From Eubacterium sp. MSJ-33 (lineage in GTDB: Bacteria > Bacillota > Clostridia > Lachnospirales > Lachnospiraceae), in NCBI RefSeq assembly GCF_022174665.1, contig NZ_CP076562.1:1-64000 (forward strand): a stretch of 64,000 nucleotides of DNA, written 5' to 3'. Numbering within the stretch: the stretch's first letter is position 1; the number at the start of each line of letters is the position of its first letter. The notes under the pieces were generated by a model that worked only from the letters and a program-made list of their open reading frames with translations, was not told the origin of the DNA and searched no databases. A program made the position numbers and the translations under genes. Below are positions 16,981-33,865 of the stretch, in pieces.

Positions 16981-16982
16981 AA

Positions 16983-17111: not shown

Positions 17112-17127
17112 ACAATTGTAATTTTAG

Positions 17128-17143
17128 GTGCCATTAAGTATAC
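17128..17143. repeat. 16-bp repeat GTGCCATTAAGTATAC (second copy, direct)
   Basis: 15/16 identical to 16983-16998; sits just upstream of the RHH gene RBS. Confidence 0.4.
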
Positions 17144-17165
17144 ATTATGAAAAAGGGTGATGAAC

Positions 17166-17357
17166 ATGGCGGAAAAAGTTTTAAGAATCGAGGCGAAAAG
17201 ATATAGAGAGGACTCGGTCGTGATGTCTGCGCGCATACCAAAAGATATGTTACAGGATATTGATTTTGTAGCAAAGGAGTCCGGCAGAACACGGAACGAG
17301 ATTGTAACTATGTTTTTAGACTTCGCATTAAAAAATACAGAGATAATAGAAAAATAA
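17166..17357 (+). CDS. ribbon-helix-helix (CopG/Arc/MetJ-like) DNA-binding protein
   Basis: 63 aa; ...RIPKDMLQDIDFVAKESGRTRNEIV... RHH beta-strand + two helices pattern; start chosen at ATG 17166 for RBS spacing. Confidence 0.6.
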   Translation: MAEKVLRIEAKRYREDSVVMSARIPKDMLQDIDFVAKESGRTRNEIVTMFLDFALKNTEIIEK

Positions 17358-17377
17358 TAAAGGAGAGGTATTGGGGT

Positions 17378-19246
17378 ATGTCAAAATTTGCGATAGCATG
17401 TCCAAACTGTGGAAAAAGTGTAGAAGCAAGTACAAAGTTATTTGCTAAAAAGAAAATAAAGTGCACATGCGGATATAGAATTAATGTTCATACGGACAGA
17501 ATGATGACGACAAAATGTTCACATTGTGGTAATCAGGTTGTATTTGATCAATCAAAAGGAAAAAGAGCAGTTTGCCCAGTATGTAGACAAAAAATTAATA
17601 CGGTAAATGATACAGTTGAGGAGTTCGCATGTGAACAATGTGGCATTCGCCTTATCACAGCAAGGAATGCATCGACCTATGTCTGCCCGGTTTGTGATTA
17701 TGAGAATAACGTGCAGGAGCGCGTGATGGCAGAGAAAATCAAGACAGATGGACTGGCAAGTATCATAAAATACGAGGGCGATAATAACACATTTATCTGG
17801 AAGCATCCAATCGAAGATTTTAATTTCGGTTCCCAGTTGATTGTACATGAGAGTCAGGAGGCAATCTTCTTTAAGGATGGGCAGGCTCTCGATCTGTTCG
17901 GGCCCGGGCGTTATACGTTGGAGACACAGCAGCTTCCACTTTTGGAGAAAGTGTATTCGTTACCGACTGACACACAGGGGACATTTCATTCCGAGGTTTA
18001 TTTCATCAACAAGACCGTCCAGATGTCTATCAAATGGGGAACCCCGGATAAGGTTCGGTTCATTGATCCGTTAACAGGAACGCCGCTTGCACTTGGTGCT
18101 TCTGGTGAGATGAATATTCAGGTGTCAAACTCCAGAAAATTATTGTTGAAATTAATAGGCACTATGAAAGGTATTTCGTGGGAAGAAGGACCGGGATTTA
18201 CGAAGTCCCTGCAGGCGTCCTTCCGTCCGCTGATTGCAAATGCGGTCAAGACCAATCTTTCTTCTGTTATCAAGAATGAAGCGATTGATATTCTGGAAAT
18301 CGATGAGAAGCTGGATTTGATATCGGATAATCTGCGAGAAAAAATCCTTCCGGGATTCGAGGAATATGGTTTGACGATACCGCAGTTTTATGTGACCAGT
18401 GTTGTTCTGCCGGAGGATGATCCGAATTTCAAGCGTATTCGGGAATTGCATACAATCACACTTCAGACACGGGTCATTCAGGCAGAAGCAACTGTGAAAA
18501 CTGCACAAGCACAGAGCGAAACACAATATCGGACTGCACAGGAGCAGAGCAAAGCCGCAATCGAGGTAGCACGACGAGAAGCAGAATTGCAGCGTCAGAC
18601 AACAGAGACAGAAATTGCAAAAAGAGCGGCAGAACGCCGCGTAATCGAAGCGCAGGCAGAAGCACAGGCACAACGGATGGCAGGATTGACGGAAGCTGAA
18701 ATCATGAAGGCAAAAGGCTATTCGCAGAAGGATGTACTTCAGGCAGATGTTCAGAAAGCATATGCCGAAGGCATCGGCAACATGGGACCGGCTATTTCTG
18801 CCGGCGGTGGAAGTGGCGTGTTGGGAGACATGCTTGGTTTAGGTGTTGGTATGGCTGCGGCAAGTGCGATTGCTCCACAGATTGGAGGGATGATGCAGGG
18901 CTTTGCAAATCCATCTATGATGCAGGGAGGTGTAACCAACCAGACGATCACACAGGCAGATGCTGATAATCAGGCAGCTTTCTTGTCAAGAAATACGTGG
19001 GATTGTACATGCGGACAGACAGGGAATACAGGAAACTTTTGCAGCAACTGTGGGGCGAAGAAACCGCAGGCAGAACAACCGGACACATGGGATTGTGCAT
19101 GTGGGAAGACAGGAAATACCGGTAAATTCTGTAGTAATTGTGGAGCAAAAAAAACGGAAGCAGAAACAAGCTGGGATTGCACATGTGGACAGACAGGAAA
19201 TACAGGTAACTTCTGTAATAACTGTGGAAAGAAGCGGGGTGAATAG
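17378..19246 (+). CDS. SPFH/band-7 (COG4260-like) protein with N-terminal triple Zn-ribbons and C-terminal triple Zn-ribbon repeats
   Basis: N-term CPNCG..CTCG, CSHCG..CPVC, CEQCG..CPVCDYEN. Core IKYEGDNNTFIWKHPIEDFNFGSQLIVHESQEAIFFKDGQALDLFGPGRYTLETQQLP typical of COG4260 SPFH proteins. Ala/Gln/Glu coiled coil. Gly/Met-rich linker. 3x TWDC[TA]CG[QK]TGNTG[NK]FC[SN]NCG[AK]KK. Confidence 0.7.
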   Translation: MSKFAIACPNCGKSVEASTKLFAKKKIKCTCGYRINVHTDRMMTTKCSHCGNQVVFDQSKGKRAVCPVCRQKINTVNDTVEEFACEQCGIRLITARNASTYVCPVCDYENNVQERVMAEKIKTDGLASIIKYEGDNNTFIWKHPIEDFNFGSQLIVHESQEAIFFKDGQALDLFGPGRYTLETQQLPLLEKVYSLPTDTQGTFHSEVYFINKTVQMSIKWGTPDKVRFIDPLTGTPLALGASGEMNIQVSNSRKLLLKLIGTMKGISWEEGPGFTKSLQASFRPLIANAVKTNLSSVIKNEAIDILEIDEKLDLISDNLREKILPGFEEYGLTIPQFYVTSVVLPEDDPNFKRIRELHTITLQTRVIQAEATVKTAQAQSETQYRTAQEQSKAAIEVARREAELQRQTTETEIAKRAAERRVIEAQAEAQAQRMAGLTEAEIMKAKGYSQKDVLQADVQKAYAEGIGNMGPAISAGGGSGVLGDMLGLGVGMAAASAIAPQIGGMMQGFANPSMMQGGVTNQTITQADADNQAAFLSRNTWDCTCGQTGNTGNFCSNCGAKKPQAEQPDTWDCACGKTGNTGKFCSNCGAKKTEAETSWDCTCGQTGNTGNFCNNCGKKRGE

Positions 19247-19248
19247 GT

Positions 19249-19938
19249 ATGAACAAAAAAGATCAGAGAGGATACATCGTCCTTGGAATTATATTTGTAG
19301 TATTTACTGTAGTTGCATTTGCAGTACCTTTTTCTAAGAAGGCAGGATTCTGGCTTGGGTATGTATTTGGAATAATAGCGATTGCGTTCCAATTATATAT
19401 TTTCAAAATTTCTTTTGCGCAGGGAGAGGATGTAAAGAGTAAGTTTTACGGATTCCCAATCGCACGTATTGGCGTGATTTATCTGGGTGCACAAATGTTA
19501 TTCAGCATATTGGAGATGGCAACAGCAAAATTCCTTTTACCATGGGTGGCAGTCCTTGTGAATATAGTCATGTTAGCGTTTGCTCTCGTTGGATGCATCG
19601 CTGCAGATATCATGCGGGATGAAATCGTGCGACAGGATGTAAAGCTGGAAAAAGATGTAACCAATATGCGCAGACTCCAATCGTTGTCAGCGTCTCTGGT
19701 AGGACTCTGCCAGGATGAAAATGCAAAGAAAACACTGCAGGATATAGCGGATGAATTCAAGTACAGTGATCCGGTATCATCCGAACAGACAAAGGAAATG
19801 GAAGAGGATATGAAGATGCAGTTAGAGGAACTGCAAAATGCAGTATTGGAAGGGGATGTAAGCAATGTTCTAATGCTATGTGTAAACCTGAAAAATCGCC
19901 TGAATGAGAGAAATCAAATGTGTGCGATGAGTAAGTGA
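19249..19938 (+). CDS. membrane protein, 4 TM + cytoplasmic helical tail (unknown family)
   Basis: Four hydrophobic helices in first 120 aa; 2-bp gap from SPFH gene (translational coupling). Confidence 0.6.
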   Translation: MNKKDQRGYIVLGIIFVVFTVVAFAVPFSKKAGFWLGYVFGIIAIAFQLYIFKISFAQGEDVKSKFYGFPIARIGVIYLGAQMLFSILEMATAKFLLPWVAVLVNIVMLAFALVGCIAADIMRDEIVRQDVKLEKDVTNMRRLQSLSASLVGLCQDENAKKTLQDIADEFKYSDPVSSEQTKEMEEDMKMQLEELQNAVLEGDVSNVLMLCVNLKNRLNERNQMCAMSK

Positions 19939-19982
19939 TTGAAAAAAATGAGAAAAATTTAAGAATGGGAGAGCAATGAATT

Positions 19983-21527
19983 ATGGCACAGATGATAACA
20001 TTTAAATGCAAAATATGTGGAGGTAATCTTACTGTTTCACCGGGTGAGTATTTAGCTGAGTGCGAATATTGTGGAACAACAATGACTATTCCGAATATAG
20101 ACTCTGAAAGAAAAGCACGTATGTTTGATCGTGCAAATCAATATAGAATTAATTGTGAATTTGATAAGGCGTATGAGTCGTTTAAGGTTATTGCGGATGA
20201 GGATGAAACAGAGGCTGAAGCATATTGGGGAATGGTTCTATCAGAGTATGGAATTGAATATGTAGAAGACCCGGAAACACATAGGAGGAAACCGACATGT
20301 CATAGGGCACATTTAGAGTCCATAAAAAAATGCGTTAATTTTCAAATGGCCTGTAAATATGCGGAAAAAGAAAATGTAGTCTGGTATCAAGAAGAAGCGG
20401 AGATAATAGATAATATTTCTAAAAGAATAGCAGGTATCGGAGCAAAGGAAGAACCGTACGATATTTTTATATGTTACAAAGAGACAGATGATATTACAAA
20501 TGAACGAACAGAAGATAGCGTATTGGCTCAATCAATTTATGATGAATTGGTAAAAAGAAACTATCGAGTATTTTTTTCAAGGATATCGTTAGAAGAAAAG
20601 CTGGGTAAAGATTATGAGCCATATATTTATTCTGCATTGGTGAGCGCACCAGTTATGATAGTTGTGACTACTAGCAACGAACATTGTCAGGCTGTTTGGG
20701 TAAAAAATGAGTGGTCAAGATATATTGGATTTATGCATGAGGATGATTCAAAAACCATAATTCCGGTCTACAAGAAAATGTCGCCATATGATTTACCAGA
20801 AGAATTATCAAGATTTCAGGCTCAGGACATGGACAAAATTGGAGCCATCCAGGATTTGGTGCATGCAGTAGAGAAGCTGCTGGGAAATGCAAAAAATAAT
20901 GATTCAGAATCTGTAAAAAATCTTAGAAATGAAATAGAAACACGAAATAGGAAAACAAAGAAAATCATTGTAATTGGTACAATTGCAATCATGTTAGGTG
21001 CTCTTGCTATTGGTATAATTTGGAAAGTTAGAAATAAAAAAATAAACTCAACTACAGACAGCCAGTATGTCATGACTGAACAAGATGAAATAGAGCAGTA
21101 TTATTCAGTAATGCAGGAAGCTTATAAAAATGGAGATTATAACGATGCTGTTTCACAGTGGCTTGAAGCAACGGTTGTTTTGAATGAATATGGGGGAGTT
21201 CAGGGAAAGGAGTATAAGGAGACTAAAGAAATTAAGGAAACAGAAGTGAGATTGTTTGATGAATACATGAAGGAACAGAAAGAAGAATATATGAGTAGAA
21301 ATAGCGATGAGTATTATTACTCTAATTTATATGATGTTTTATATTGTCTATCATACCACAAGCATGTGTTAGACGAATCAGAAATTTTTAATGGTGATGA
21401 AAATGAGAAAAATTTCTATATTAAGATTTTGAAAAAAGCGGCTCAAGAGGAAATTGAAGGTTACAAATATGATTCGCAACAAAGGCAACCATACCAGGAT
21501 ATATATGACTATTTAGACAATATGTAA
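19983..21527 (+). CDS. Zn-ribbon + helical module + TIR domain + single TM + C-terminal extracytoplasmic domain protein
   Basis: N-term FKCKICGG...CEYCG Zn-ribbon. TIR signature at aa 157-285: YDIFICYKETDD..., ...SALVSAPVMIVVTT, ...AVWVKNEWSRY with conserved Glu. TM KIIVIGTIAIMLGALAIGIIWKV at aa 327-349. Confidence 0.7.
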   Translation: MAQMITFKCKICGGNLTVSPGEYLAECEYCGTTMTIPNIDSERKARMFDRANQYRINCEFDKAYESFKVIADEDETEAEAYWGMVLSEYGIEYVEDPETHRRKPTCHRAHLESIKKCVNFQMACKYAEKENVVWYQEEAEIIDNISKRIAGIGAKEEPYDIFICYKETDDITNERTEDSVLAQSIYDELVKRNYRVFFSRISLEEKLGKDYEPYIYSALVSAPVMIVVTTSNEHCQAVWVKNEWSRYIGFMHEDDSKTIIPVYKKMSPYDLPEELSRFQAQDMDKIGAIQDLVHAVEKLLGNAKNNDSESVKNLRNEIETRNRKTKKIIVIGTIAIMLGALAIGIIWKVRNKKINSTTDSQYVMTEQDEIEQYYSVMQEAYKNGDYNDAVSQWLEATVVLNEYGGVQGKEYKETKEIKETEVRLFDEYMKEQKEEYMSRNSDEYYYSNLYDVLYCLSYHKHVLDESEIFNGDENEKNFYIKILKKAAQEEIEGYKYDSQQRQPYQDIYDYLDNM

Positions 21528-21561
21528 TCGATAAAATCATTTCTTTGCGGAGGGGAAAAAC

Positions 21562-23994
21562 ATGGCAAATTATTGTATTTATGAAGTAAAAGTAATTGGA
21601 AGTGAAAAGGCATGTTTAATGGTGTTTGAATCAATGCCATATATGGATTATAACCAGATAGAGACTAAGAATCAGAAGAATGAATTAACAGAGCTTATGT
21701 TTGCAGGCAACTGTAAGTGGTCCGTTAATTTTAAAGTGAGAGATGTATTGTCAAAGGTGGATGTTGATTCTTTTGATGAAACATTAATTCAGGAAAAAGC
21801 TTCTGATTATTACCAATATTCATTAAGAGCAAAGTCTGAAGCATTTGAATGTGAAATATTGGTACATTATTGGTCTGAGGAATCTGGGTTTGATCAGTTT
21901 GACCATTATAAAAATGGAGAAATTATAAAAAAGAGAAAAATAAAATTCAACTCTAAGAAACAAAATCGATTTGACTGGAACAAGACAGAATTCGTCGGAC
22001 ACGAAGGAGAATATGATGAGTCTGTGGATGGTGAGGAACAAGATGAAAAATATGTAAAATTTATAACGGATACTATTAATAAATTGGCTGGAAAGACAGA
22101 TGTGTCAATTGATACAAAAAGAGATAAAAATATGAGTACAGACATGGAAAAAGTAGAAAATGCTATGTATCAATGGACGTTTACACAAGGAAATACAGTG
22201 AACTTGAATGAATGGACGATAGGAATTCCGGATGGATTTATGAAAATAAATTCAGAAGAGATGATACCTACAACACACAAAAAAAGACCATTTGAATTGG
22301 TACCTATCAAAGACAAAGAAAATCCTGAATGTGCGACGGTGCGTATTTTGCCAGGTCTTATGAAAAGCGTAGGAAATATAGGAGTTTCAGATATGTACCA
22401 TCCGCTTGCAAAATTGGGTATTGCAGCAATTGTAGCGTCTAATGGTGCTAAAGACTATTTGAAATCTATGGGTGTTGCTTCAAGAGTATTTTATACAGCT
22501 TGGGATAATTCTTATGCATATATACTTGTTCAAGATGCGTTATTTGATACAGTTGATTATCATTGCACGGTATTGGCAAATGGAAAGATCCAAATCTTGG
22601 GCGTGAGGACAGGCGTTAGCGATGTAGATGATTTTGATGAAGATAGAAAAAAACAGTTAGAGCAGTCAATTATTGAATGGTTACATACAATGCAATCTAA
22701 TAAATGTTCAGTGACTGTTCCAACAGTAAAATTTGAAGATGATGATTGTTTTGATGAGGTTATGAAAGGGAAAAGCCTGAAAAAATTTGAAACTGCTGTA
22801 CAACAAGCGCATGAGGAATATCGTGTAGCAATGTTAGGAAAAATGCATGTTGTAAAGTATGAGTTTGAAAGTGGGGTTGGAGTCGGAAAACAAAATGTAA
22901 AGGAAACGACAAAAGAAGTTCTATTGGAAGGAATGAAGGTACGGGAGTTTTATGCAGAAAAGGCAAATGATTTCGTGCAAAGAATACAGCAAGCGGAGAT
23001 AACGGGGGATACTTTTATAAAAATTCTAAAAAAATTGTTGGAATTAAAGAAGGATGATGAGCTAGCAAAAGTAACAATCGATAATCGTGTGGTTAAGGTG
23101 GATGTTCCAGACAGAGTAAAAGAAATAGAAAAAGAATGGGAGAAGATACTTCGTTCTGAGGAAGAGAAAAAGACAAGGGAACTTCAAAAAAAGAGAGAAA
23201 TAGAGGAAGCGAAAAGAAAAACTGCTTTGGAAAAAGAAGCTGCTGAAAAGAAAGCCAGAATGGAAAAAGAAGTAGCCGCGTGGACGGAAGAGGTTGAGAA
23301 AATAAAGAAAGATCGCGAAGCAAATCGTATAGAGAAAATAGCATCATATGAAGATGTGGCCAAAATTAGAAAGCAACATGCAGAGGAAGTTCGAACAACA
23401 CAACTGGATAGCACAAACGGCATGATTCAGGATTTGAAGAACCGTTTATCTTTGGATACTATAGAACTTGGACAATTGGGAGTGTTAAAGTTTCACAGAA
23501 GAAAAGAATTGCAAAATTCTATTGAACAATTGACAAGAGAATTGCAGGAAAAAGAACATGTCCTTATAACAATTGAAAAGGAATATGAAAAGGAAATAAA
23601 AAATGCTGATGAAGAATACACCCGGAAAGTAAATGGCCTTTCCGCGTATCTGGATGAAAAGTATCAAGTGCCAGAAAGTCCAATGGTGGTTGAAGAAAGA
23701 AAGCAAAGAGAAGAAGAAAAAGAAAAAAAAGAACGAAAAATAAAAGAGGATCCTAATTACGAAATAAAGTTAGAGATAATAGAACTTTTGGAGAGCGGTG
23801 AACCGATGATGTGTACTGAAGTGGCCAAAGAACTTGATATCTCTATAAATAAAGCAGTTGCTCTCATGTCGCAGCTTGCTGGTTCGGCGGATATGGAAAA
23901 ACGAGAACCGGGAAAGATATATCCGCTCATTCGTTTTGCAGATGGAAAGAGGATTAAATTTAAGATTAATCCGGAGTGGGATTCAGAGTTATAA
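21562..23994 (+). CDS. large coiled-coil protein (810 aa) with C-terminal winged-helix
   Basis: ~250-aa Glu/Lys-rich heptad region; C-terminal LEIIELLESGEPMMCTEVAKELDISINKAVALMSQL wHTH-like; unknown N-terminal globular domains. Confidence 0.6.
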   Translation: MANYCIYEVKVIGSEKACLMVFESMPYMDYNQIETKNQKNELTELMFAGNCKWSVNFKVRDVLSKVDVDSFDETLIQEKASDYYQYSLRAKSEAFECEILVHYWSEESGFDQFDHYKNGEIIKKRKIKFNSKKQNRFDWNKTEFVGHEGEYDESVDGEEQDEKYVKFITDTINKLAGKTDVSIDTKRDKNMSTDMEKVENAMYQWTFTQGNTVNLNEWTIGIPDGFMKINSEEMIPTTHKKRPFELVPIKDKENPECATVRILPGLMKSVGNIGVSDMYHPLAKLGIAAIVASNGAKDYLKSMGVASRVFYTAWDNSYAYILVQDALFDTVDYHCTVLANGKIQILGVRTGVSDVDDFDEDRKKQLEQSIIEWLHTMQSNKCSVTVPTVKFEDDDCFDEVMKGKSLKKFETAVQQAHEEYRVAMLGKMHVVKYEFESGVGVGKQNVKETTKEVLLEGMKVREFYAEKANDFVQRIQQAEITGDTFIKILKKLLELKKDDELAKVTIDNRVVKVDVPDRVKEIEKEWEKILRSEEEKKTRELQKKREIEEAKRKTALEKEAAEKKARMEKEVAAWTEEVEKIKKDREANRIEKIASYEDVAKIRKQHAEEVRTTQLDSTNGMIQDLKNRLSLDTIELGQLGVLKFHRRKELQNSIEQLTRELQEKEHVLITIEKEYEKEIKNADEEYTRKVNGLSAYLDEKYQVPESPMVVEERKQREEEKEKKERKIKEDPNYEIKLEIIELLESGEPMMCTEVAKELDISINKAVALMSQLAGSADMEKREPGKIYPLIRFADGKRIKFKINPEWDSEL

Positions 23995-24026
23995 ATATAG
24001 TGAAGGATATGGGAGGCGAAAAGCAA

Positions 24027-24145
24027 TGAGTTGTCCAAGATGTGGTGGAAAAATGGATAGTGGTATTTGCGAGGAATGTGGGTTCCCCATTACTCGTATT
24101 TGGGAACATGAAAATTATTATATGCTTTTATTTAGTGAAATATAA
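24027..24145 (+). CDS. 39-aa zinc-ribbon mini-protein
   Basis: MSCPRCGGKMDSGICEECGFPITRIWEHENYYMLLFSEI; strong RBS gggaggcgaaaagcaATG; the longer 23858 track ORF overlaps the preceding gene. Confidence 0.4.
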
Positions 24146-24165
24146 TTGTACGGGAGAGATTTATT

Positions 24166-27100
24166 ATGAAAATTAGAACGGATTTTGTGACAAATTCAAG
24201 TAGTAGTTCTTTTGTTGTTGAAATTTCTTTTACTTTGAAGGATGGCAGGGTGTTGAGGCGTTGTGAAGTAGGAGGGGAGGATGGAAGAGATTTATATGTG
24301 TGTGCGAGTCCAAGACAACTTGGTCTCTGTAAGAATGTTGAGGAAATGATTACGCTGTTAAATGATAGCGTAAAAGTCGAGGAGCGCTTTGATGACTGTA
24401 ATAGAAAGAAATTTGTTGATACAAATTTTATACAGCAACTTGAGTCAATAAAAGAAATGAGCGAAATTGAAAAAATTACAATTTCGGGAAATGAACTAAA
24501 TTATGAAGAGTATGAGAGAATTTATAGATATAATCTTGATACAGAAGAGTATACCTGCGAAATTTTTGGAGAGGAATTTGAAAGTGAAGGATCAGGAGGA
24601 AATCTGGAATTTTGTGACGGATTTTTGGCAACACGTCAGGATGGATATGATGATGGGGAGTTTTTGCGTGTTGAAGATTTACCAATAATTGTTCCGTTGG
24701 AAGAAAGTAGTGATAAAGAACAGGTAAGTTTATTGGAAAATGTCAGAGAAGGTGAAAAACTTATTCTGAAAAATGAATTTACGGATGATTTATTTGACCC
24801 TGTAAAAATAGGCGTTTTTAATAAAAAAAATCAGCTGCTAGGGTATCTTTGCGAATTGGACTATTCGTTAATAGCAATAGCAAGAGCATTAGAAGATGTT
24901 GATGCTTGTGTCGATTCTGTCGCACCATTATCTGGTAGAAAGAAAAATGAAGAATATTCTTTAATGGATGTGAGAATTACATCAAAGGAAGGAAATAACC
25001 CATTTGCAGAAGGTTATAAAATAAAATTTGATGTAAGTGAATTATCTGAAGATGAGAAAAAGTTATTTAATGAAATGATAGAGCACTGGAGAAATCAGTA
25101 TGACAAAGAAGAAGTAACTATGAGCTGGATTTTTAAAATAAATCCACCAGAGTATTTTGTGACTTGTGATGAATTTGATGAAAAAACAGCAGAAGAAACA
25201 AAAAGATTTTTACAAGAAGCAGGTAGCAGAAGTAGCTTAAAAAAGTTACATGCAACATTTTGGGGAAATCTGAATTTTGAAAAAAGAAAATTTCGGCAGT
25301 ATAACTATCTGCTGGATAGAGGATTCTTAGATTGTGAAAAAACAATAGAAGAAAAGAAAGATGAATGCATTACTAATCAGTCATCTTCGTTGGAAGAAAA
25401 AATAGAAAAAGCAGTCGAGAAAGTGAGCAACTTGAAAAAAATGTCTAATACCATGTTTTATGATAGTAGGCATAGTGTGAATATGGATTTTCAAAAAGGA
25501 AAGATTGTTGAATTTGGTAATTATAGACAAGGAAAAAATGGAGTAGTTAAACCTTTACAATGGGTTGTTTTGGAGCGAAAGGGGAATGGTGCAAAACTTC
25601 TTTCATTAAAAGGAATTGAAACCTTGCCATACAATGTCAAAGATGGAAAAACAAGCTGGGAGAAATGCTTTCTTCGTTCGTGGTTGAACACAGAATTTTA
25701 TAATGCTGCATTTTCTTCTGAAGAGGCAGAAAGCATTATTTTATCGGATGTGGTTGCGGTTAGGCACCCCCAATATTTAACTTCACCAGGAAATGATACG
25801 AAAGATAAAATTTTTCTTTTAAATTATCAGGAGGCTGAGAACGTTGGGAAAAGGTGGAAAAAAACATATTTAACGGAATGGGCAGTTCAAAATGATGACT
25901 TGTTTAAAAAAAATTATGGCATAAATAATTATGCACTGTGGTGGTTGAGAACTCCGGCTAGTGCAACGAAAAGAAGTTGTGTGATGGGAAAATATATTTC
26001 TGGGATAGATGTTCGAGATGTTGATGGTATAGCGGTTAGACCTGCGATTTGGATAAATCTTAATTCAGAATATTTTGGTGGATCATTTGAAGTAATGGTA
26101 AAGGATGCTGAGAAAGAATTGTCTGTTGATGAGGTAATTGAAAAAATAAAAGAAAAATACAATACGAAAACAAAACCGACATCTACAATAGAATTTGATA
26201 TTCAAAATGTAGAATACACTAAGCAATTAAATGAATTAAAAAAGAAATGTGAAAATGAATTAGAAATTACATACAGAAATTATTTAATTCAAATGGGAGT
26301 TTTAGGAGACAAGGTAAAATTAATTGATACATACGATCCGTCAGAAATGATCAAGACCTTAAAAGAAAAATATAACAACAGTGAATTAAAACCGAAAACA
26401 TTTGTTGAGTTGATGGATAAAAATCCGGAATTCCGCGAAGAATTAAATACTTTACGTTCTGTATCTCAAAAAAAGTATGGAGATACAGCTGTTGACTATT
26501 TGAAAAAACAGGGGATAATTGCAACTTCGGAGGAAATAGCAGCTATCAGACAAGAAAAAATTAAAAAAATAGTGGTGGAAACAGCAGAACGGAAAGCAGA
26601 AATAAGAAGAAAGGAACGATTAAGGAAAGTTGATAGGATACAAATACAAGATGCAAAATTGCAAAATAAAGTAGATAAATTAATTTATGGCCTGAATGAA
26701 TTATATCCTGAGCATAAAGTATTTTCTTTGGATAGTTTGGATGGCACTCTGCGGGAAAATTTATCAAAGTATGCAAAACAAATAGGATATTTATCTGCTG
26801 ACGATATGCTTTTGGCATATGATTTTGTGAAGATTGATGCTGATGAGGTTAAAGAAATCCGCCCTAATGTATTACATAAACCGGGAAATGAACCAGAAAT
26901 AATCAAGGGTAAGGTGCAAAGTATATTAAGACGATTAGAAGAATATTATCCGGATAAAAAAATAGAGAGGAGTATTCAGTTGGATCATAAAAAACTAAGC
27001 CAAAGTATTACTGGGGCATATCTTTGGCTTGGATATAACAATCAAGGGGAATTCCTGAAGGCTTACGGATATGAAAATAATATAAAATATAATGAAAATG

Positions 27101-27318
27101 GGCGTGGTGGAGGAAGACCATCTTCGACAAATGTAGAAGAGCTTATTATGGAATTAAAGAAAAGAAGTGGAGGAAATCCATATTCTGGATTTAAGGAATT
27201 AAAAGAGAAGAATCCGGATCTGGCAGGAAAGTTAAAAACTATATCTAACAAAGCAAATAGTTTGTTAGGAATGCCGTTCGTAAAGTATTTAAAGCAAGAG
27301 GGAATCGTGCGTGATTAA
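24166..27318 (+). CDS. 1050-aa protein: Ser-run N-terminal module (MKIRTDFVTNSSSSSF), HIRAN-like segment, DUF6273-like domain, long helical C-terminus
   Basis: DUF6273-like block GKIVEFGNYRQ...PLQWVVLE...LLSLKGIETLPYN...SWEKCFLRSWLNTEFYNAAFSSEE...YALWWLRTPAS...VRPAIWINL; HIRAN-like GEKLILKNEFTDDLFDPVKIGVFNKKNQLLGYL. Confidence 0.65.
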   Translation: MKIRTDFVTNSSSSSFVVEISFTLKDGRVLRRCEVGGEDGRDLYVCASPRQLGLCKNVEEMITLLNDSVKVEERFDDCNRKKFVDTNFIQQLESIKEMSEIEKITISGNELNYEEYERIYRYNLDTEEYTCEIFGEEFESEGSGGNLEFCDGFLATRQDGYDDGEFLRVEDLPIIVPLEESSDKEQVSLLENVREGEKLILKNEFTDDLFDPVKIGVFNKKNQLLGYLCELDYSLIAIARALEDVDACVDSVAPLSGRKKNEEYSLMDVRITSKEGNNPFAEGYKIKFDVSELSEDEKKLFNEMIEHWRNQYDKEEVTMSWIFKINPPEYFVTCDEFDEKTAEETKRFLQEAGSRSSLKKLHATFWGNLNFEKRKFRQYNYLLDRGFLDCEKTIEEKKDECITNQSSSLEEKIEKAVEKVSNLKKMSNTMFYDSRHSVNMDFQKGKIVEFGNYRQGKNGVVKPLQWVVLERKGNGAKLLSLKGIETLPYNVKDGKTSWEKCFLRSWLNTEFYNAAFSSEEAESIILSDVVAVRHPQYLTSPGNDTKDKIFLLNYQEAENVGKRWKKTYLTEWAVQNDDLFKKNYGINNYALWWLRTPASATKRSCVMGKYISGIDVRDVDGIAVRPAIWINLNSEYFGGSFEVMVKDAEKELSVDEVIEKIKEKYNTKTKPTSTIEFDIQNVEYTKQLNELKKKCENELEITYRNYLIQMGVLGDKVKLIDTYDPSEMIKTLKEKYNNSELKPKTFVELMDKNPEFREELNTLRSVSQKKYGDTAVDYLKKQGIIATSEEIAAIRQEKIKKIVVETAERKAEIRRKERLRKVDRIQIQDAKLQNKVDKLIYGLNELYPEHKVFSLDSLDGTLRENLSKYAKQIGYLSADDMLLAYDFVKIDADEVKEIRPNVLHKPGNEPEIIKGKVQSILRRLEEYYPDKKIERSIQLDHKKLSQSITGAYLWLGYNNQGEFLKAYGYENNIKYNENGRGGGRPSSTNVEELIMELKKRSGGNPYSGFKELKEKNPDLAGKLKTISNKANSLLGMPFVKYLKQEGIVRD

Positions 27319-27353
27319 TCGTCTGGAGTTTTGGCAAAGAGAGAGGTAAATGT

Positions 27354-28451
27354 GTGAAATATATAATCAGGGATAAAAAATATCGTTTTAAATCAGCGTT
27401 TGATATGGAAACAGGTGCATATGTAAGAACCGGTATTTTAGATGAAAATGGGGAGGATACAGGGGTAGATCCTTTTATGGCGTCTTTTCCGCATCTTATT
27501 GATGTGGGTGTAATGGGACATTGCACTCATGGAAAAACAGGTTTGTGTGCAAGAGCAGGTATAGGCTGTTATCAGAATGGTTTGTATATCAATCAACCCA
27601 ATATGAGTGTAGAAGATTTCCGATGGATTGCGGAACAGTGTAAGGGTAGATGTAATCAATTAGCGCTTGGGGGACGTGGGGATCCAGACCAACATGAACA
27701 ATTTGAAGAACTACTAATGATTAGTAGAGAAAATATGTTAGTTCCTAATTTTACAACTTCTGGTTATGGAATGACAACACAGATTGCGTCCTTGTGTAAA
27801 AAGTATTGTGGCGCGGTTGCTGTTAGTTGGTATAGGAATGAGTATACAATAGAGGCAATAAATATGTTGTTGGAAGCGGGTGTTAAAACAAATATACATT
27901 ATGTGTTGGGAAATAATAGTATTAACGAGGCAATTGAGAGGTTATCAACTGATGATTTCCCGAAAGGTATTAATGCAGTTATTTTTCTTTTACATAAGCC
28001 CGCAGGGCAGGGAACGAAAGATAACATGTTGGCTGTTGGGGATCCGCGAGTAAAGCGTTTTTTTGAGCAGATTGAAAAAAAACATCCGTTTAAGGTAGGA
28101 ATGGATAGCTGCAATGTGCCGGGAGCAATTAATTTTTGTAATAAAATCATTCCGGAATCGTTAGACACATGCGAGGGAGGCCGATATAGCTGCTATATTG
28201 GTGCAGATATGATTATGGTTCCGTGTAGCTTTGATCAACAGAAAATATATGGGGTGTCTCTAAGAAAAATGGATATAACAGATGCTTGGAATAGCATACA
28301 ATTCAAAAACTTTAGAGACAAAATGAAAAATGTCTGTCCGGACTGCAATAAAAAAGCGTTGTGCATGGGAGGATGTCCCCTTATGCCGGAAATTGTATTT
28401 TGCAACAGAAAGGAAAGAAAATTGTATAAAGGAGAAGACAATGAAAATTAG
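27354..28451 (+). CDS. radical SAM/SPASM-like Fe-S protein with non-canonical N-terminal Cys motif (CX7CX6C)
   Basis: GTG start with RBS agagagg. GHCTHGKTGLCARAGIGC where CX3CX2C is expected. GGRGDP at GGE-motif position. NFTTSGYG at ribose-motif position. C-terminal Cys clusters CNVPG..FCNK..C.GG..C and CPDCNKKALCMGGCP typical of SPASM/twitch. Confidence 0.45.
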   Translation: MKYIIRDKKYRFKSAFDMETGAYVRTGILDENGEDTGVDPFMASFPHLIDVGVMGHCTHGKTGLCARAGIGCYQNGLYINQPNMSVEDFRWIAEQCKGRCNQLALGGRGDPDQHEQFEELLMISRENMLVPNFTTSGYGMTTQIASLCKKYCGAVAVSWYRNEYTIEAINMLLEAGVKTNIHYVLGNNSINEAIERLSTDDFPKGINAVIFLLHKPAGQGTKDNMLAVGDPRVKRFFEQIEKKHPFKVGMDSCNVPGAINFCNKIIPESLDTCEGGRYSCYIGADMIMVPCSFDQQKIYGVSLRKMDITDAWNSIQFKNFRDKMKNVCPDCNKKALCMGGCPLMPEIVFCNRKERKLYKGEDNEN

Positions 28452-28515
28452 AACAGAGTTTGTAACTAATTCAAGTAGTAGCAGTTTTAGTGTTATGCAG
28501 ATGTTGAGGAAGTAG
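28441..28515 (+). CDS. orphan 24-codon ORF duplicating the N-terminal module of the 24166 gene (MKIRTEFVTNSSSSSFSVMQMLRK)
   Basis: Strong RBS aaggagaag; first ~50 nt near-identical to 24166-24215; overlaps the 3' end of the rSAM-like gene by 11 nt; may be a precursor-like peptide or a gene-start remnant. Confidence 0.35.
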   Translation: MKIRTEFVTNSSSSSFSVMQMLRK

Positions 28516-28647: not shown

Positions 28648-30378
28648 ATGCAGGAAAATTATGAGTTAGTACAACGAGGTTTTCGAAAACTGGTAGTTAC
28701 GTTTTCTGGTTATATTGGAAGGGAATTCAGTAAAAAATATAAAAATGCATGGTGGGACGAAGTGTTAGAGGCATTATCAGACCAGCATGATTTGCCAAGT
28801 GATGGTGAATATGGATATCTGATAGATTCATTAGATATTTTAAATTGTATTCGCTTATTAGAACGCAGGTGGAAAGAAGTTTTTCAAGATGAGTTACCTT
28901 TGAACTGTCGTACATGGGCAAAAGAACTTAAGGGGATTAGGAATAAAGTCGCTCATATTGGTCAGCAGGATTTGGATCAGCCCATAGCAGAACGTGCACT
29001 TGACACGATGCGTTTGCTATGTAAAGAATTGGATTCGGATGATGCGGCAGAAATTGAAAAAATATATGAAGAGGTTAGAAAAAGAGCAAATGATTATCGA
29101 CCGGTGACGCGTATTTTTGAGGGAGTAGAGCAACCGGCTTCAGAATCTAATCGCGGTGAATTGATGAAAGATAGTCTTCTTCAGCTTGTCGGAACGGATG
29201 TGGTTCAGAAAACAACGTTGACAAGGAAGGTAACATATGGAGGGAAAACAGTTATTTACCCGGTGTATCGGATTCGCTTAGACTATCTTTTTTATAATGA
29301 TCAGAATGATCGAATAGCAACCTGGATTACCCGATATCAGGCTGAAAATGGCGAAGATTCTTTGCTTGAGCTAGGGAGAGAAGAATACAATAATGTTATT
29401 GAAACATTTATATATGAAAGCAATCCGGATGCAATATCAAAAACACAAAAAAATATTTTGTTGGTCGGACAACGTGAGCCGGGAGTTACTTTATCAGATG
29501 GGCGTATTGTGGATGGAAACCGAAGATACACTTGTTTGCGAAGAATTCAACGTGAGAAAATAGGACCTGTTTATTTTGAAACAGTAATTATGGATATGGA
29601 TATCCGGGAAGACAAGAAACAGATAAAATTATTGGAACTTGCAATACAGCACGGAGAAGAAAAAAAGGTAGACTATGATTTGATTGATTATGCGATTGGT
29701 ACATATAGGGATATTGTGCAGACAAAGCTGCTTACATTGGACGAATACGCAACAGGGACAAATGAAAAACCGGCAGATGTAAAAAATCGAATTGAAATTG
29801 CAGAAATTATTAGTGAGTTCCTAAAGTATATAAAGCTTCCGGAGCAATATCACATTGCGAGGGAATATCAGGTTTATAGTTTGTTTCAGGAGATGATGGC
29901 TCCGCTTAAAAAGTTGAATGAATCAGAAAAGGCGCAACTAAAGAAAATAACATTTAATAATGCTATGATGAAAGTTATACCTGACCAGAGAAAATTTATA
30001 CGAGATATTAAAGGACTGGTTAAAAATGGCACCTATGAATCATATTTTGAAGAACAAATGAATTGGATTAATGTGATTCGGGACAAGTTTGATATGTGCG
30101 AAGTTCATTCTAAAAGTGATATAGACAAGTTTGCAGAAGAAAATGCGAAGATTGCAGAGGAATTGCAAATATCGATGGAAAGAGCTCTGCAAAAATCCCG
30201 GTCAATAATATTAAAAAATAAACCGGTAGAAAATGTGTCAAAAAGTATTACTCTTTTAACAGAGGTGGATTCCAGACTGTTTGGAAGGTTGGAAGAGGAA
30301 GAGAAAAAGCAATTAAAAGACGAATTGGATGAACTTGCAAGAATTGTAGATGTGTTTCGGGAAAAACTTGTGAGGTAG
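28648..30378 (+). CDS. HEPN (Swt1-like, Rx4H) N-terminal domain fused to ParB/Srx-like (DUF262/DGQHR-type) domain
   Basis: GIRNKVAH at 28939-28956 at the end of a ~110-aa helical domain with conserved W/R pattern; downstream IVDGNRRYTCLRRI matches the ParB/DUF262 DG(Q/N)(Q/H)R motif. Confidence 0.5.
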   Translation: MQENYELVQRGFRKLVVTFSGYIGREFSKKYKNAWWDEVLEALSDQHDLPSDGEYGYLIDSLDILNCIRLLERRWKEVFQDELPLNCRTWAKELKGIRNKVAHIGQQDLDQPIAERALDTMRLLCKELDSDDAAEIEKIYEEVRKRANDYRPVTRIFEGVEQPASESNRGELMKDSLLQLVGTDVVQKTTLTRKVTYGGKTVIYPVYRIRLDYLFYNDQNDRIATWITRYQAENGEDSLLELGREEYNNVIETFIYESNPDAISKTQKNILLVGQREPGVTLSDGRIVDGNRRYTCLRRIQREKIGPVYFETVIMDMDIREDKKQIKLLELAIQHGEEKKVDYDLIDYAIGTYRDIVQTKLLTLDEYATGTNEKPADVKNRIEIAEIISEFLKYIKLPEQYHIAREYQVYSLFQEMMAPLKKLNESEKAQLKKITFNNAMMKVIPDQRKFIRDIKGLVKNGTYESYFEEQMNWINVIRDKFDMCEVHSKSDIDKFAEENAKIAEELQISMERALQKSRSIILKNKPVENVSKSITLLTEVDSRLFGRLEEEEKKQLKDELDELARIVDVFREKLVR

Positions 30379-30383
30379 GGGTT

Positions 30384-33302
30384 ATGAATATAAAAATATT
30401 ATCAATTGATGAAATAGGTTTGTCAAATCGTTCTGTGAATGCACTACATAGGGTGGAAATATATACAGTTGGGGAGATGATAGAATTAAACGAAGAATTT
30501 TTGCATAAGATTAGAAATATTGGAGAAAAATCAATTGAAGAAATTTGTAAGAAAATACAGGAATATAAAATATTGGAAACAAATTCGAATATTGAAGTTC
30601 CGGAAGATTTTGATGAATGGATTTTGGTTGAATCCAACCAGCAATTTGTAATAACGTGGTTAAGAGATAATAAGATAAAAATCGACGAATTAGAATTATT
30701 ATCGGTACGGGCATATAATTTGCTGATATTTTCAGGGTATGAGTATTTGTATCAGGTGGCTTTTCTTACAGAAAAAGATTTGATGCAGATTCCCAGAATG
30801 GACAGCTCATCTGCATTAGAAATTGTTCGGTATGTATCAAGATATATTGCGGAACAACAAGAACAAATTATTGCGTCAATTGTTCAGATGCAGTCTAAGG
30901 AGACACCATTAAATCAGGTGTCAGTTTTTGATATACTTGATAAAATTGAATATCATGATGTGATATTGGACTTTGTGAAATTGCATGATATTTTGCTTGA
31001 TGGAATGAATATTTCCAATCGGGCAAAAAATAGCTTGAGTATAAGCGGGTATTATTATCTTAGTGATATAGTATTTATGACATATACGCAGCTGAAAAAT
31101 ATACCATCTATGGGAGCTGGAACGGCAAAAGAAGTTATAGATAAAATAAATGAATATCTAAGTAAATATGAAGCGAGAATTTTGGCATTCGTTAGTGGTG
31201 ATGTGTCTGGGTTATGGGATGACACAGAAATACAACAGAGGATTTGGAATCAGTTTCGTGATATTGGATTTCAAGGACTTAGTCTGAATGAAATAGTAGA
31301 ACGGATGAAGCTTCCGGAACAAGTGACGATAGAGCGAATAAAGAAAAATATAGGTCAGCTGATTGTTGATAAAAAATTAGAATATGTAGATTATCGATGT
31401 TACCGTGTGTATGCGCGGTTTGCGGATTATTTGGAGCAATGTGATGTTATTGATGAAAGATCAAAAAATATTTTAAGAAAACGATTGCAATCTATGACAT
31501 TAGAAGAGATTGGACAAGAAGAAGGGATAACCAGAGAACGGGTACGTCAAATCCTGAAGAAAGGGATTGTCCAAATTAAAAAAATATATAAGTCAAGGGA
31601 AGGTACCAATTTATTTGATGAGGATTATTATCGATATTTGTATGAAAATTATGATTTTGATAAAAAGGATGGAACGGAATGGCTTGGAATTCCCGTATAC
31701 GTATGGAAATATCTTGAGTTAAATGATGTAAAACAGGGAAAGAAAGAGTTGCAGTCGGCGAGGGAAGATCAACAGGGACTTGATCTTGGAATGCGTTTGA
31801 AAATAAAAAACTATCTTAATAGAAATAAACTTTTTGTGGATGGTAGATGGATTGAAAAGGAGCGTGCGGAATTAGAAAAGGTTGTTATTAGAAAATTTTG
31901 TCAGGAAGATGTATCGTTTGGGAAGTTTTGCCAGATATATAATCAGTTTTTGTTACAGGAAGAAATACCATATGATGAAGATATCTATTATACAGAGACA
32001 GTGTATCGGACAAGAAAAAATCGTATTCGTGATTTAAGATACTTGCTTTGGAAACAGCACGAACAAATAAGATATTATGATATTGATGGACGTGATTATG
32101 ATGAACTTTTGGATACATTAAATCTGGATGCTTATGAGAATATTGAATTGTCGACAGAAAAATTCATGAGAGATTATCCGGAAATTATGAAGAAATATGA
32201 TATCCGGGATAAGTATGAATTACATAATTTATTAAGGAAAATCATACCGGAAGGAAGTTATCATGAGTTTTTCTGTGAACGTACGCCAAATATCAGATTT
32301 GGACACTTTGATCGTGATGCTGCAGTATTGGACATTTTGATTGATAATGCGCCAATAGCTCAGGATGATTTAGCGGATCTAATAAGTGAGGAATATGGAT
32401 TTGATGCGGATGGAATAAAATCTAATTATTTGAAGCCGGTTTCAGAGTATTTACATCAACGTACATATTCGATTGATCAGAAATCCATGTCTGTTGAAAA
32501 TCGAGAATTATTACATGAAGCACTTACAGATGATTTCTATTTTATGGATGAGATTCGACAGATTTATGATAGGTTAATTCCAGGGGCAGATAGAGAAGAG
32601 ATTAATCCGTATAATTTGAAGGTGATGGGATTCCATGTTTATTCAAGATATGCAATTCAAAACCATTCGTCTGTTGATGCGTATTTTGATGACTTATTAA
32701 CGCGGGAAGATATTATAGATATTACAGCGTATAAAAAAAGATATGCATATGTGCAGATGTTTTCGCAGAAGTTGATGGAATTAAAACGAGATTTAACAGT
32801 AATTGAATTTGAAAAAAATCAGATTATTAATTTTAGAAAATTGGAGCAATCAGGTGTTACGAAAAATATGATTCAGGAATTTTGTGATAATGTTTATAAC
32901 TTTATTACAGATGGAACATATTTTAGTATTCAATCCTTGATACAGGATGGCTTTCAGTCTGACTTGCATGAGCTGGGATTTTCTGATTGGTTTTATGCGA
33001 ATTTGTTAATATCTGATGAACGTTTTTCAGCTGCTATGATGTTTGGAAATTTGATTTTTTATAAGGGAAAAGCGTCAATAACGATTAAGATGTTTGAAAA
33101 AGATATTATTTGTAAGTATCAAAGTATGGATACATATGATCTTGTGGATGAACTTACCGATCGGTATGGATGTAAGGTTCCGGATAAATATGATGTTATC
33201 TATAAAGTTCAGGATACAGAGGTGTATTATGATAAAATCTTAGATCGTCTGTATGCCAACATGAATGTATATGATGAAGAATGCGCGAGAGGAGGGTTTT
33301 AA
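30384..33302 (+). CDS. 972-aa protein: 3x RNA-polymerase alpha-CTD-like HhH repeats + sigma-70 region-4-like HTH + ~600-aa unknown C-terminal region
   Basis: LSIDEIGLSNRSVNALHRVEIYTVGEMIELNEEFLHKIRNIGEKSIEEI (alpha-CTD pattern) repeated at aa ~100 and ~200; MTLEEIGQEEGITRERVRQILKKG (sigma r4.2 pattern). Confidence 0.55.
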   Translation: MNIKILSIDEIGLSNRSVNALHRVEIYTVGEMIELNEEFLHKIRNIGEKSIEEICKKIQEYKILETNSNIEVPEDFDEWILVESNQQFVITWLRDNKIKIDELELLSVRAYNLLIFSGYEYLYQVAFLTEKDLMQIPRMDSSSALEIVRYVSRYIAEQQEQIIASIVQMQSKETPLNQVSVFDILDKIEYHDVILDFVKLHDILLDGMNISNRAKNSLSISGYYYLSDIVFMTYTQLKNIPSMGAGTAKEVIDKINEYLSKYEARILAFVSGDVSGLWDDTEIQQRIWNQFRDIGFQGLSLNEIVERMKLPEQVTIERIKKNIGQLIVDKKLEYVDYRCYRVYARFADYLEQCDVIDERSKNILRKRLQSMTLEEIGQEEGITRERVRQILKKGIVQIKKIYKSREGTNLFDEDYYRYLYENYDFDKKDGTEWLGIPVYVWKYLELNDVKQGKKELQSAREDQQGLDLGMRLKIKNYLNRNKLFVDGRWIEKERAELEKVVIRKFCQEDVSFGKFCQIYNQFLLQEEIPYDEDIYYTETVYRTRKNRIRDLRYLLWKQHEQIRYYDIDGRDYDELLDTLNLDAYENIELSTEKFMRDYPEIMKKYDIRDKYELHNLLRKIIPEGSYHEFFCERTPNIRFGHFDRDAAVLDILIDNAPIAQDDLADLISEEYGFDADGIKSNYLKPVSEYLHQRTYSIDQKSMSVENRELLHEALTDDFYFMDEIRQIYDRLIPGADREEINPYNLKVMGFHVYSRYAIQNHSSVDAYFDDLLTREDIIDITAYKKRYAYVQMFSQKLMELKRDLTVIEFEKNQIINFRKLEQSGVTKNMIQEFCDNVYNFITDGTYFSIQSLIQDGFQSDLHELGFSDWFYANLLISDERFSAAMMFGNLIFYKGKASITIKMFEKDIICKYQSMDTYDLVDELTDRYGCKVPDKYDVIYKVQDTEVYYDKILDRLYANMNVYDEECARGGF

Positions 33303-33307
33303 TTATA

Positions 33308-33808
33308 ATGGTTCAGGCAAAAAAACAGTTTCTTGATGAAGTAGAAAAACTTCATGAAAGAAATGAACTATCCAAGAAAGTAGAAGCAACATATTTTGAA
33401 CCGGGAATGATGGAGTATCTGGAACAATCAGAAGGTATATATGAAGAGGGTACAGGGAATGTTATTCTTCGTTTTGAAGTTATGGGAACACGTTATGATG
33501 GTCGGACAGAGCAGATTGAAAAGTTAAAACCGGGGGACTTGATACAAATAGTCAGAGAAAAAGAAAATCCTTACAACTCTAATAATTTTACTTTGCTGAC
33601 AAAACGAGGACAAAATGTGGGGAATATGCCGGCTAATTTATGTAACGCGATTGCACCATTGTATGATGAAGGAAATTTAAAAATCATGGATGCCTCTGTT
33701 AGCTATGTGGAACCTATTTCCAAGAGAAATCGTCATGCCAAGCAAGCTATCTTATTTGTGGAATTAAAGGCAAAACTGAATTCCGCCCTGAATTCCGCCC
33801 CATGCTAG
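33308..33808 (+). CDS. HIRAN domain protein
   Basis: FEVMGTRYDGRTEQIEKLKPGDLIQIVREKENPYNSNNFTLLTKRGQNVGNMPANLCNAIAPLYDEG matches HIRAN (3'-DNA-end binding) pattern; C-terminal 12-bp tandem duplication ctgaattccgcc x2 (LNSALNSA). Confidence 0.55.
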   Translation: MVQAKKQFLDEVEKLHERNELSKKVEATYFEPGMMEYLEQSEGIYEEGTGNVILRFEVMGTRYDGRTEQIEKLKPGDLIQIVREKENPYNSNNFTLLTKRGQNVGNMPANLCNAIAPLYDEGNLKIMDASVSYVEPISKRNRHAKQAILFVELKAKLNSALNSAPC

Positions 33809-33839
33809 CAAATCTTTTTATTTTATGATATGCTAGCAT
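33802..33839. promoter_or_regulatory. operator-like pair of TGCTAGCA palindromes spaced ~20 bp
   Basis: aTGCTAGCAaatctttttattttatgataTGCTAGCAt overlapping stop of HIRAN gene, 27 bp upstream of HipA-like start. Confidence 0.4.
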
Positions 33840-33865
33840 TATCAAAATGAAAGGGCGGACGTAGT

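Follow-up and report, generated by a model that had tools for sequence, protein, structure and literature searches.

Why should the first residues of a very large bacterial protein recur downstream as a free-standing 24-codon open reading frame (ORF) that begins inside the end of the gene for a radical S-adenosylmethionine (radical-SAM)/SPASM-like enzyme? The question is posed by a locus of Eubacterium sp. MSJ-33 (contig NZ_CP076562.1), lying in a stretch of 64,000 nucleotides that we analysed as a whole and refer to as the window. Nucleotides 24166–24213, which open the gene for a 1050-amino acid (aa) protein, are identical to nucleotides 28441–28488, which open the short ORF, at 41 of 48 positions (85.4%; 45 of 54 when 54 nt are compared), much as the initial annotation of this DNA had estimated (about 85% over some 50 bp), and the two copies encode the peptides MKIRTDFVTNSSSSSF (1050-aa protein) and MKIRTEFVTNSSSSSF (24-codon ORF). 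In the whole 64-kb window, a degenerate pattern that encodes the TNSSSS core has exactly two matches, where shuffled sequence would give 0.04. The short ORF does possess the strong ribosome-binding site ascribed to it, AAGGAG located 6 nt upstream of its ATG, and it starts 11 nt ahead of the TAG stop codon (28449–28451) of the intervening 365-aa enzyme gene. This arrangement had been proposed to represent a protein- or peptide-modification pair and, for the 24-codon ORF in particular, the classic precursor–maturase layout of peptides synthesised ribosomally and modified after translation (RiPPs). As described below, the first proposal is the best reading of the locus and the second is not supported: the 16-residue repeat is a portable N-terminal tag that is linked to one enzyme family and is probably modified by it, and the 24-codon ORF is best read as what is left of a further tagged gene.

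A search with the first 175 residues of the 1050-aa protein returned 78 proteins, many of them stand-alone proteins of approximately 120–250 aa. All homologues of the 1050-aa protein open with the same 16 residues, beyond which they have in common an N-terminal region of 150–190 aa followed by differing C-terminal parts. An alignment of 46 of these proteins has a mean column identity of only 27%, yet M1-K2-I3-R4-T5-D6-F7-V8-T9-N10-S11-S12 and F16 do not vary in it. We then searched exhaustively, with a hidden Markov model (HMM) profile, among 1.84 billion cluster representatives (tagged proteins being counted at 50% identity). The number of matching representatives was 3,307 with a cutoff of E ≤ 1e-3 and 576 with the stricter E ≤ 1e-10. 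Nearly all of the 150 matches listed start from residue 1, and the consensus is M-K-[IVFL]-[RK]-x-D-F-[VI]-T-N-S-S-S-x-x-[FY], with G or S at position 6 in rare clades.

What follows the tag is far less constant. When the 16-mer was removed from the 295 distinct tagged proteins encoded in the examined loci, the remainders fell into 56 clusters unrelated by BLAST, and the globular N-domain that follows the tag in the window protein was found in 58 of the 128 tagged proteins encoded at bacterial loci and in none of the 243 encoded on viral contigs. This marks the 16-mer as an N-terminal tag that is portable, and not as the opening strand of any single domain. Among 51 proteins, the domains recognised behind the tag are LRR_5 (17), BRCT (9), HIRAN (2), TIR (1) and DUF6273 (1). 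Tagged proteins from bacteria range from 99 to 1,834 aa in length and members of viral arrays from 99 to 198 aa; an intact tagged protein has at least about 99 aa (one 81-aa ORF was left out of this count). The globular N-domain and the tag are separable, since one 805-aa protein (P0292) carries the domain twice internally and has no tag; its N-terminal ~300 residues, by reading of the sequence, resemble a transcriptional regulator.

Two further properties characterise the tag. First, among 259 unique tag DNAs all six serine codons are used at S11–S13 and all four threonine codons at T9. Because these codons vary freely, conservation acts on the peptide and not on the DNA or RNA, and a DNA-level repeat or recombination signal as the cause of the conservation is ruled out by the same variation, which includes the change between the AGY and TCN serine classes. 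Second, structure prediction makes the tag a flexible tail: in the AlphaFold2 (AF2) model residues 1–14 form a low-confidence coil, and the mean predicted local distance difference test score (pLDDT) is 56 for residues 1–10 and >90 for most of the core. Neither tag nor N-domain has a match in Pfam or NCBIfam, no fold relative of the N-domain is known, and the window N-domain has no match among the PHROGs; two phage tagged proteins match phrog_7397, a family of unknown function. A literature search on the tag and the enzyme clade found no description of either, although most subscription-journal papers lay outside that search and a prior description is possible.

If the motif were a widespread generic signal, it should occur independently of the enzyme gene. 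A one-genome-per-species scan gave 196 relatives of the tagged N-domain, and we examined 78 loci from Clostridia, Bacteroidales, Erysipelotrichaceae, Coriobacteriales, Desulfovibrionaceae, Gastranaerophilales and others, mostly in metagenome-assembled genomes (MAGs) from gut and rumen; carriers also include Coriobacteriia. By tblastn with the window enzyme, a gene encoding a 52–80% identical protein is present in approximately 64 of the 78 genome loci, and in every one of the 60 loci in which the enzyme is at least 70% identical to that of the window its gene is adjacent to a tagged gene. The motif is thus closely and specifically linked to homologues of the enzyme and is not a generic signal. 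The spacing is tight as well, the tagged gene starting no more than 60 nt from the stop codon of the enzyme gene in 52 of 62 bacterial loci. When all ORFs were clustered, the enzyme (65 loci) and the tagged proteins were the only broadly conserved gene families; clustering of 82 bacterial and 80 viral loci disclosed no third conserved component and no conserved protease or transporter gene near the module. For some tagged genes that appear to be orphans, the contig names indicate that the same assembly has the enzyme on another of the examined loci.

The same pairing is frequent in viruses. Among IMG/VR viral contigs we found 229 relatives of the enzyme, many of them on contigs of 45–270 kb, and tags are present in 67 of 80 viral-contig loci, where typically the enzyme gene is followed by an array of three to seven small tagged proteins. 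Moreover, tag variants go with enzyme clades. At loci with an enzyme at least 44% identical to that of the window, 287 of 287 tags have R at position 4; in an enzyme clade with 30–44% identity, K takes this place in 83 of 85 tags, and the residues at positions 14 and 15 vary. R and K never occur together at position 4 within one locus, even though the proteins of one array are unrelated to each other. A tagless enzyme clade of approximately 40% identity (viral contigs L129, L136, L144, L148 and L161) is flanked by small membrane proteins with an ...LFDDDDDKEV motif, which may mean that this enzyme family serves another substrate system there.

The enzyme belongs to a family of 4,320 clusters at 90% identity. 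Of the radical-SAM/SPASM assignment made initially, the SPASM part is borne out by Pfam (PF13186; 28.2 bits for the 365-aa protein, cutoff 21.5), whereas the radical-SAM part does not reach its threshold, as detailed below. In an alignment of 63 sequences (62 homologues and the window enzyme) C57 and C72 never vary and C65 shows 97% conservation, and the SPASM cysteines C273, C291, C328, C331, C337, C341 and C350 are all invariant, which constitutes the full seven-cysteine SPASM motif for two auxiliary clusters (C-x9-15-G-x4-C ... C-x2-C-x5-C-x3-C ... C). Also invariant are LGGRGDP (the GGE motif) and TTSG (the ribose motif, T/S-x-G). The spacing CX7CX6C of the first three cysteines is probably a variant of the SAM-cluster motif, judging from the alignment, and the enzyme resembles a lineage with expanded loop spacing, since distant relatives in RB43-like T4-type phages have CX7CX2C. 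These phage proteins (for example CPTMiller_00165 of Citrobacter phage Miller, locus L163, 91374–92528) are 26% identical to the window enzyme over 91% of its length and likewise have an expanded first cysteine spacing, but unlike the window enzyme they have no tagged genes adjacent. They occur in ~170 cultured Klebsiella, Enterobacter, Cronobacter and Citrobacter phages and are annotated only as radical SAM or hypothetical; with no tagged genes and no known function, they were given up as a functional clue.

A profile search of Protein Data Bank (PDB) sequences gave weak matches to PqqE, anSME, SkfB and BtrN. The best Foldseek matches of the AF2 model of the enzyme (pLDDT 65) are SuiB, anSME, CteB, PqqE, ChlB and TigE (probability 1.0, TM 0.5–0.6), with SkfB and EpeE also among the best, and all of these are peptide- or protein-modifying radical-SAM enzymes. 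Taken together, alignment and Foldseek matches identify a partial TIM-barrel fold with GGE-type and ribose SAM-binding motifs. Matches of the enzyme in NCBIfam fell far under the cutoffs, with none at the level of anSME (equivalog), and the enzyme homologue of one phage (L086) matches phrog_7293, a family of unknown function. Natural fusions of enzyme and tag were sought as well, but none of the longer homologues of the enzyme (P0094, P0122 and P0137) is such a fusion.

The strict position of the tag at residue 1, its predicted flexibility and its near-invariance on unrelated proteins, together with its exclusive linkage to and co-variation with a single enzyme family of the peptide-modifying SPASM class, make a direct interaction of enzyme and tag the best explanation of these data. 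The interaction probably takes the form of modification of the tag by the enzyme. The protein-modification pair suggested at the outset thus remains the best reading, on the strength of the linkage and because the enzyme groups structurally with peptide- and protein-modifying radical-SAM/SPASM enzymes. In our model the module would consist of two parts, a divergent radical-SAM/SPASM enzyme and any number of tagged proteins, and nearly anything may follow the tag. The enzyme would recognise the flexible N-terminal tag, with the alternating K-I-R-T-D-F-V-T stretch as the likely recognition strand and the invariant F-V-T-N-S-S-S as the likely site of a radical-mediated modification (a cross-link, serine oxidation or epimerisation, for example), and would place the same modification on every tagged protein encoded beside it. 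A thioether within the tag is excluded because the tag has no cysteine; the invariant D6, F7, V8, T9, N10, S11–S13 and F/Y16 would permit an aromatic-to-C-beta cross-link, serine oxidation or epimerisation. In the window, the 1050-aa DUF6273 protein would be the one intact candidate substrate, and the 24-codon ORF would be a stump left over after recombination or deletion took the rest of the first tagged gene, with the ribosome-binding site and the stop overlap kept.

The proposed system has clear precedents and clear departures from them. Like the window enzyme, anSME is a radical-SAM/SPASM enzyme without an RiPP recognition element (RRE), and the Ser or Cys on which it acts belongs to a short conserved motif close to the N-terminal end of full-size proteins. 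The initial annotation had drawn this comparison, and anSME does stand among the top profile and fold matches of the window enzyme; the likeness is one of analogy only, however, in that the anSME target motif (C/S)-x-(P/A)-x-R, including the form (C/S)xPxR, is absent from the tag. Here, moreover, the cluster motif is CX7CX6C, the targets would be dozens of unrelated proteins and not sulfatases, and the tag includes Met1. In radical-SAM/SPASM RiPP clusters (streptide/SuiB, sactipeptides/CteB, ranthipeptides, triceptides, PQQ/PqqE) the enzyme gene likewise adjoins its substrate gene or genes, the substrates have a common recognition sequence and vary elsewhere, and the enzymes of such clusters are the nearest solved structural neighbours of the window enzyme. 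By contrast, the "precursors" here are folded proteins of ~99 to 1,834 aa whose conserved part is a cysteine-free 16-residue segment at the extreme N-terminus, and no RRE, leader protease or exporter is linked to the module in Pfam, NCBIfam or ORF clustering. Nor is there a dedicated short conserved precursor gene, the 24-codon ORF being lineage-restricted and the intact tagged proteins being mostly folded domains. What is known is the pairing of a radical-SAM/SPASM maturase with adjacent substrate genes, and what is new is a portable N-terminal tag on whole proteins, its frequency in phages and the CX7CX6C motif.

A broader view, to which we would give somewhat less than an even chance, is that of a tag-and-modify system, common in phages and on mobile islands, in which the CX7CX6C radical-SAM/SPASM enzyme would modify the universal 16-residue tag on dozens of unrelated phage accessory and bacterial island proteins and so direct them to a common fate (activation, covalent capture, stabilisation or virion delivery), with RiPP-type chemistry serving as licensing in phage–host conflict. 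Should the enzyme indeed modify the tag, the module would represent a large and hitherto unrecognised class of radical-SAM protein modification in which RiPP-style chemistry reaches folded proteins via a portable 16-residue handle. That handle could double as an engineering tag, a new cluster-motif variant would join the radical-SAM superfamily, and there would be a functional foothold on dozens of hypothetical phage protein families and on LRR, BRCT, HIRAN, TIR and DUF6273 defence-island proteins.

Several observations weigh against modification of the tag. Pfam Radical_SAM (PF04055) scores 17 bits (E = 0.007) against a gathering threshold of 29.5, the canonical CX3CX2C is absent with CX7CX6C in its place, and the AF2 model of the enzyme inspires little confidence (pLDDT 65, falling to <50 near the cluster loop); on these three grounds SAM cleavage is not assured. 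Viperins appear in the Foldseek list at E-values similar to those of the SPASM enzymes (~1e-6), Pfam and NCBIfam scans detected no RRE/PqqD-like recognition domain, and the chemistry of the modification is entirely one that we infer. On the side of the linkage, approximately five loci with good flanks (L018, L024, L036, L049 and L074, in incomplete MAGs) have a tagged gene and no nearby enzyme, more distant enzyme clades are without tagged neighbours, and the co-variation could partly stem from common descent or from gene conversion of tag DNA within arrays. Finally, the 24-codon ORF may still be translated and bound, because its strong ribosome-binding site and a nearly intact tag are kept.

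The alternative that fares best is that the tag is a docking peptide which recruits interchangeable sensors or adaptors (LRR, BRCT, HIRAN, TIR) to a radical-SAM effector, which would act on a nucleotide or some other small molecule within a defence or counter-defence complex. A defence-like character is apparent in the window island and at several further loci (TIR, HEPN_Swt1, a PDC-M03-like pair, restriction–modification (RM), DISARM and WYL genes), the C-terminal parts of the bacterial tagged proteins are binding modules, and the co-variation of tag and enzyme suits binding as well as catalysis. The viperin matches (E ~1e-6) would also fit such an effector, but the best structural and profile matches are to peptide- and protein-modifying SPASM enzymes and the two-cluster SPASM motif is conserved, whereas viperins are not known to possess a SPASM domain. 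In addition, PADLOC (PADLOC-DB v2) has no model for either component, neither the enzyme nor the tagged protein giving a match, and phage arrays of three to seven small unrelated tagged proteins are hard to see as sensors. We regard docking as unlikely, if still worth keeping in mind.

A second alternative, which we consider improbable, takes the tag as a sorting signal for virion packaging or export to which the radical-SAM gene is only indirectly related. The model for this is provided by the internal proteins of phage T4, where small phage proteins that are encoded in arrays and are not related to one another begin with a common short conserved capsid-targeting sequence; this sequence requires no radical-SAM enzyme, and the prohead protease cleaves it off. 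The tag resembles that sequence in being short, portable, strictly N-terminal and present on arrays of unrelated small phage proteins, and in one phage (L086) the genes around the array are accessory ones, those for RNA ligase and polynucleotide kinase among them. The two sequences are nevertheless unrelated, and the tag is tied to an enzyme and found on large chromosomal proteins too: the enzyme is the sole universally co-conserved gene, no protease, portal, scaffold or transporter gene co-varies with the tag, and many carriers are chromosomal islands encoding multidomain proteins of 300–1,800 aa. A sorting role and a modification role can coexist.

This leaves the 24-codon ORF itself. Its conservation in related loci had been named as decisive for its status as a gene, and it is not conserved. 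In two closely related loci (L001 and L002), a 96–98% match to the window extends over 21490–28443 and resumes at about 28596, so that homology breaks exactly at the stop codon of the enzyme gene and the 152 bp of the window correspond to 3.1 kb in L001/L002. There the interval comprises a DUF1351/RNase_T gene together with a 538-aa gene that has no tag and is present either whole or as fragments of 48 and 98 aa; in other words, the nearest relatives have other, decayed genes in place of the short ORF. The tagless 538-aa gene has C-terminal modules in common with tagged proteins. In L001 (14276–15892) it includes the repeated module YPEHKV...PGNEPEI...EEYYPDKKI...WLGY, which is found also in the 1050-aa protein and in two further proteins (P0002 and P0004) and has no Pfam match.

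A sister sub-lineage (at least 13 contigs) has the arrangement of the window and carries MKIRTDFVTNSSSSSFSVMQMLGK*. The two versions of the ORF differ at only two positions, D6E and G23R, both nonsynonymous, and the E6 of the window version is unique among the 259 tag DNAs, in which D6 is near-invariant. No conserved class of tag-only peptides turned up among 171 loci; only two very short tag ORFs were found there, one of 54 aa that is a clear truncation and one of 84 aa at a contig end. The former (L045) is followed by a remnant of the 3' end of the enzyme gene and then by a fresh tagged gene, which indicates that the junction of enzyme 3' end and tag 5' end is prone to rearrangement. When a degenerate 38-nt pattern was run against metagenome contigs for a full-length ancestor, only the same stump was returned. 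From these sequence comparisons we read the 24-codon ORF as a truncated member of the tagged family, the stump of the first tagged gene after the enzyme, which is possibly still translated and not maintained by selection. Of the roles envisaged for it initially, that of a remnant of a displaced paralog matches the comparison of loci, and the precursor–maturase layout is not supported by it. The ORF, which is lineage-restricted, drifting and situated in the canonical slot of a tagged gene, is not read as an independent peptide gene. That it is itself functional in a RiPP-like manner, whether as the enzyme's minimal substrate, as a decoy or as a regulator, is very improbable. In favour are its strong ribosome-binding site, its ATG, a tag that is almost whole, translational coupling with the enzyme and recurrence in at least 13 contigs of one strain lineage, but the closest other lineages are without it, its only differences alter the peptide (one of them at D6), and neither the 171 loci nor the metagenome scan offers a conserved counterpart.

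Table 1. Coordinates of the tagged gene, the enzyme gene, the stump and adjoining features in the window
Feature	Position	Strand	Remark
N-terminal tag MKIRTDFVTNSSSSSF of the 1050-aa protein, canonical form with D6	24166–24213	+	Consensus and codon usage from 259 unique tag DNAs
1050-aa tagged protein	24166–27318	+	Sole intact tagged protein in the island
Globular beta-rich N-domain, ~residues 17–165	24214–24660	+	Present after the tag in many bacterial members
DUF6273 domain, residues 479–631	25600–26058	+	Pfam, E = 6.5e-23
Radical-SAM/SPASM-type enzyme, 365 aa, GTG start, presumed tag-modifying maturase	27354–28451	+	
Non-canonical cluster motif C57-x7-C65-x6-C72-Y	27522–27569	+	Occupies the usual CX3CX2C position
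SPASM region, auxiliary-cluster cysteines C273, C291, C328-x2-C331-x5-C337-x3-C341, C350	28170–28403	+	Pfam SPASM
Shine-Dalgarno sequence AAGGAG, within the last codons of the enzyme gene	28429–28434	+	
24-codon stump MKIRTEFVTNSSSSSFSVMQMLRK*, putative remnant of the tagged gene usual 3' of the enzyme	28441–28515	+	
Lineage-specific 152-bp segment	28444–28595	.	blastn breakpoints, gene tables
HEPN_Swt1 protein (28648–30378) and RpoA-CTD/sigma-r4 protein (30384–33302)	28648–33302	+	Pfam

The features of the module are collected in Table 1. The 1050-aa protein is composed of the tag, the globular N-domain, a HIRAN-like segment, DUF6273 (placed by Pfam in this giant tagged protein, as had been noted) and repeated C-terminal modules, and its residues 1–271 align with a protein (P0039) made up of tag, N-domain and Pfam HIRAN. 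In one sister strain (L164, 1814–4965) the 1050-aa gene is split into ORFs of 778 and 272 aa, which shows that the only intact tagged gene of the island is also decaying in some strains.

The module is situated in a variable island of ~19 kb, flanked on the left by a cardiolipin-synthase-like gene and a resolvase (14637–16980) and on the right by a histidine kinase/response regulator pair (35236–37268). Other genes of the island encode an SPFH protein, a TIR protein, an 810-aa protein with a weak helix-turn-helix (HTH) match, a 39-aa zinc-ribbon ORF, HEPN_Swt1, the RpoA-CTD/sigma-r4 protein and a HIRAN plus HipA-like pair. At other loci the module adjoins RM, DISARM, WYL and AAA genes, and the window island is variable, of the defence type and probably mobile. 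It opens with the serine recombinase (resolvase), and its left part varies between strains (window 16318–21527 versus L001 5488–7289), with the SPFH protein, a 229-aa protein and the TIR protein in the window and a WYL protein in L001/L002.

The 39-aa ORF, a CxxC...CxxC zinc ribbon (MSCPRCGGKMDSGICEECGF...), lies at 24026–24145 on the + strand between the 810-aa and the tagged genes and was called as a gene in L001, L002 and L169 as well. Downstream of the module, HEPN_Swt1 (576 aa) is followed by a 972-aa protein with three RpoA-CTD repeats and sigma-70 region 4. The same pair stands beside the module in L007, L012, L034 and L054, and the sigma-like gene only in L053, with varying order and orientation at these independent loci; the pair may constitute a two-gene system in its own right or serve the module as an accessory. 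The HIRAN-domain protein and HipA-like kinase at 33281–35002 correspond to components B and A of the PADLOC candidate system PDC-M03, and this PDC-M03-like pair and a PglW-like segment are the only PADLOC matches in the neighbourhood. Downstream of the island, 39518–41869 encodes a glycyl-radical enzyme (PFL-like plus Gly_radical) that appears to be unrelated to the module.

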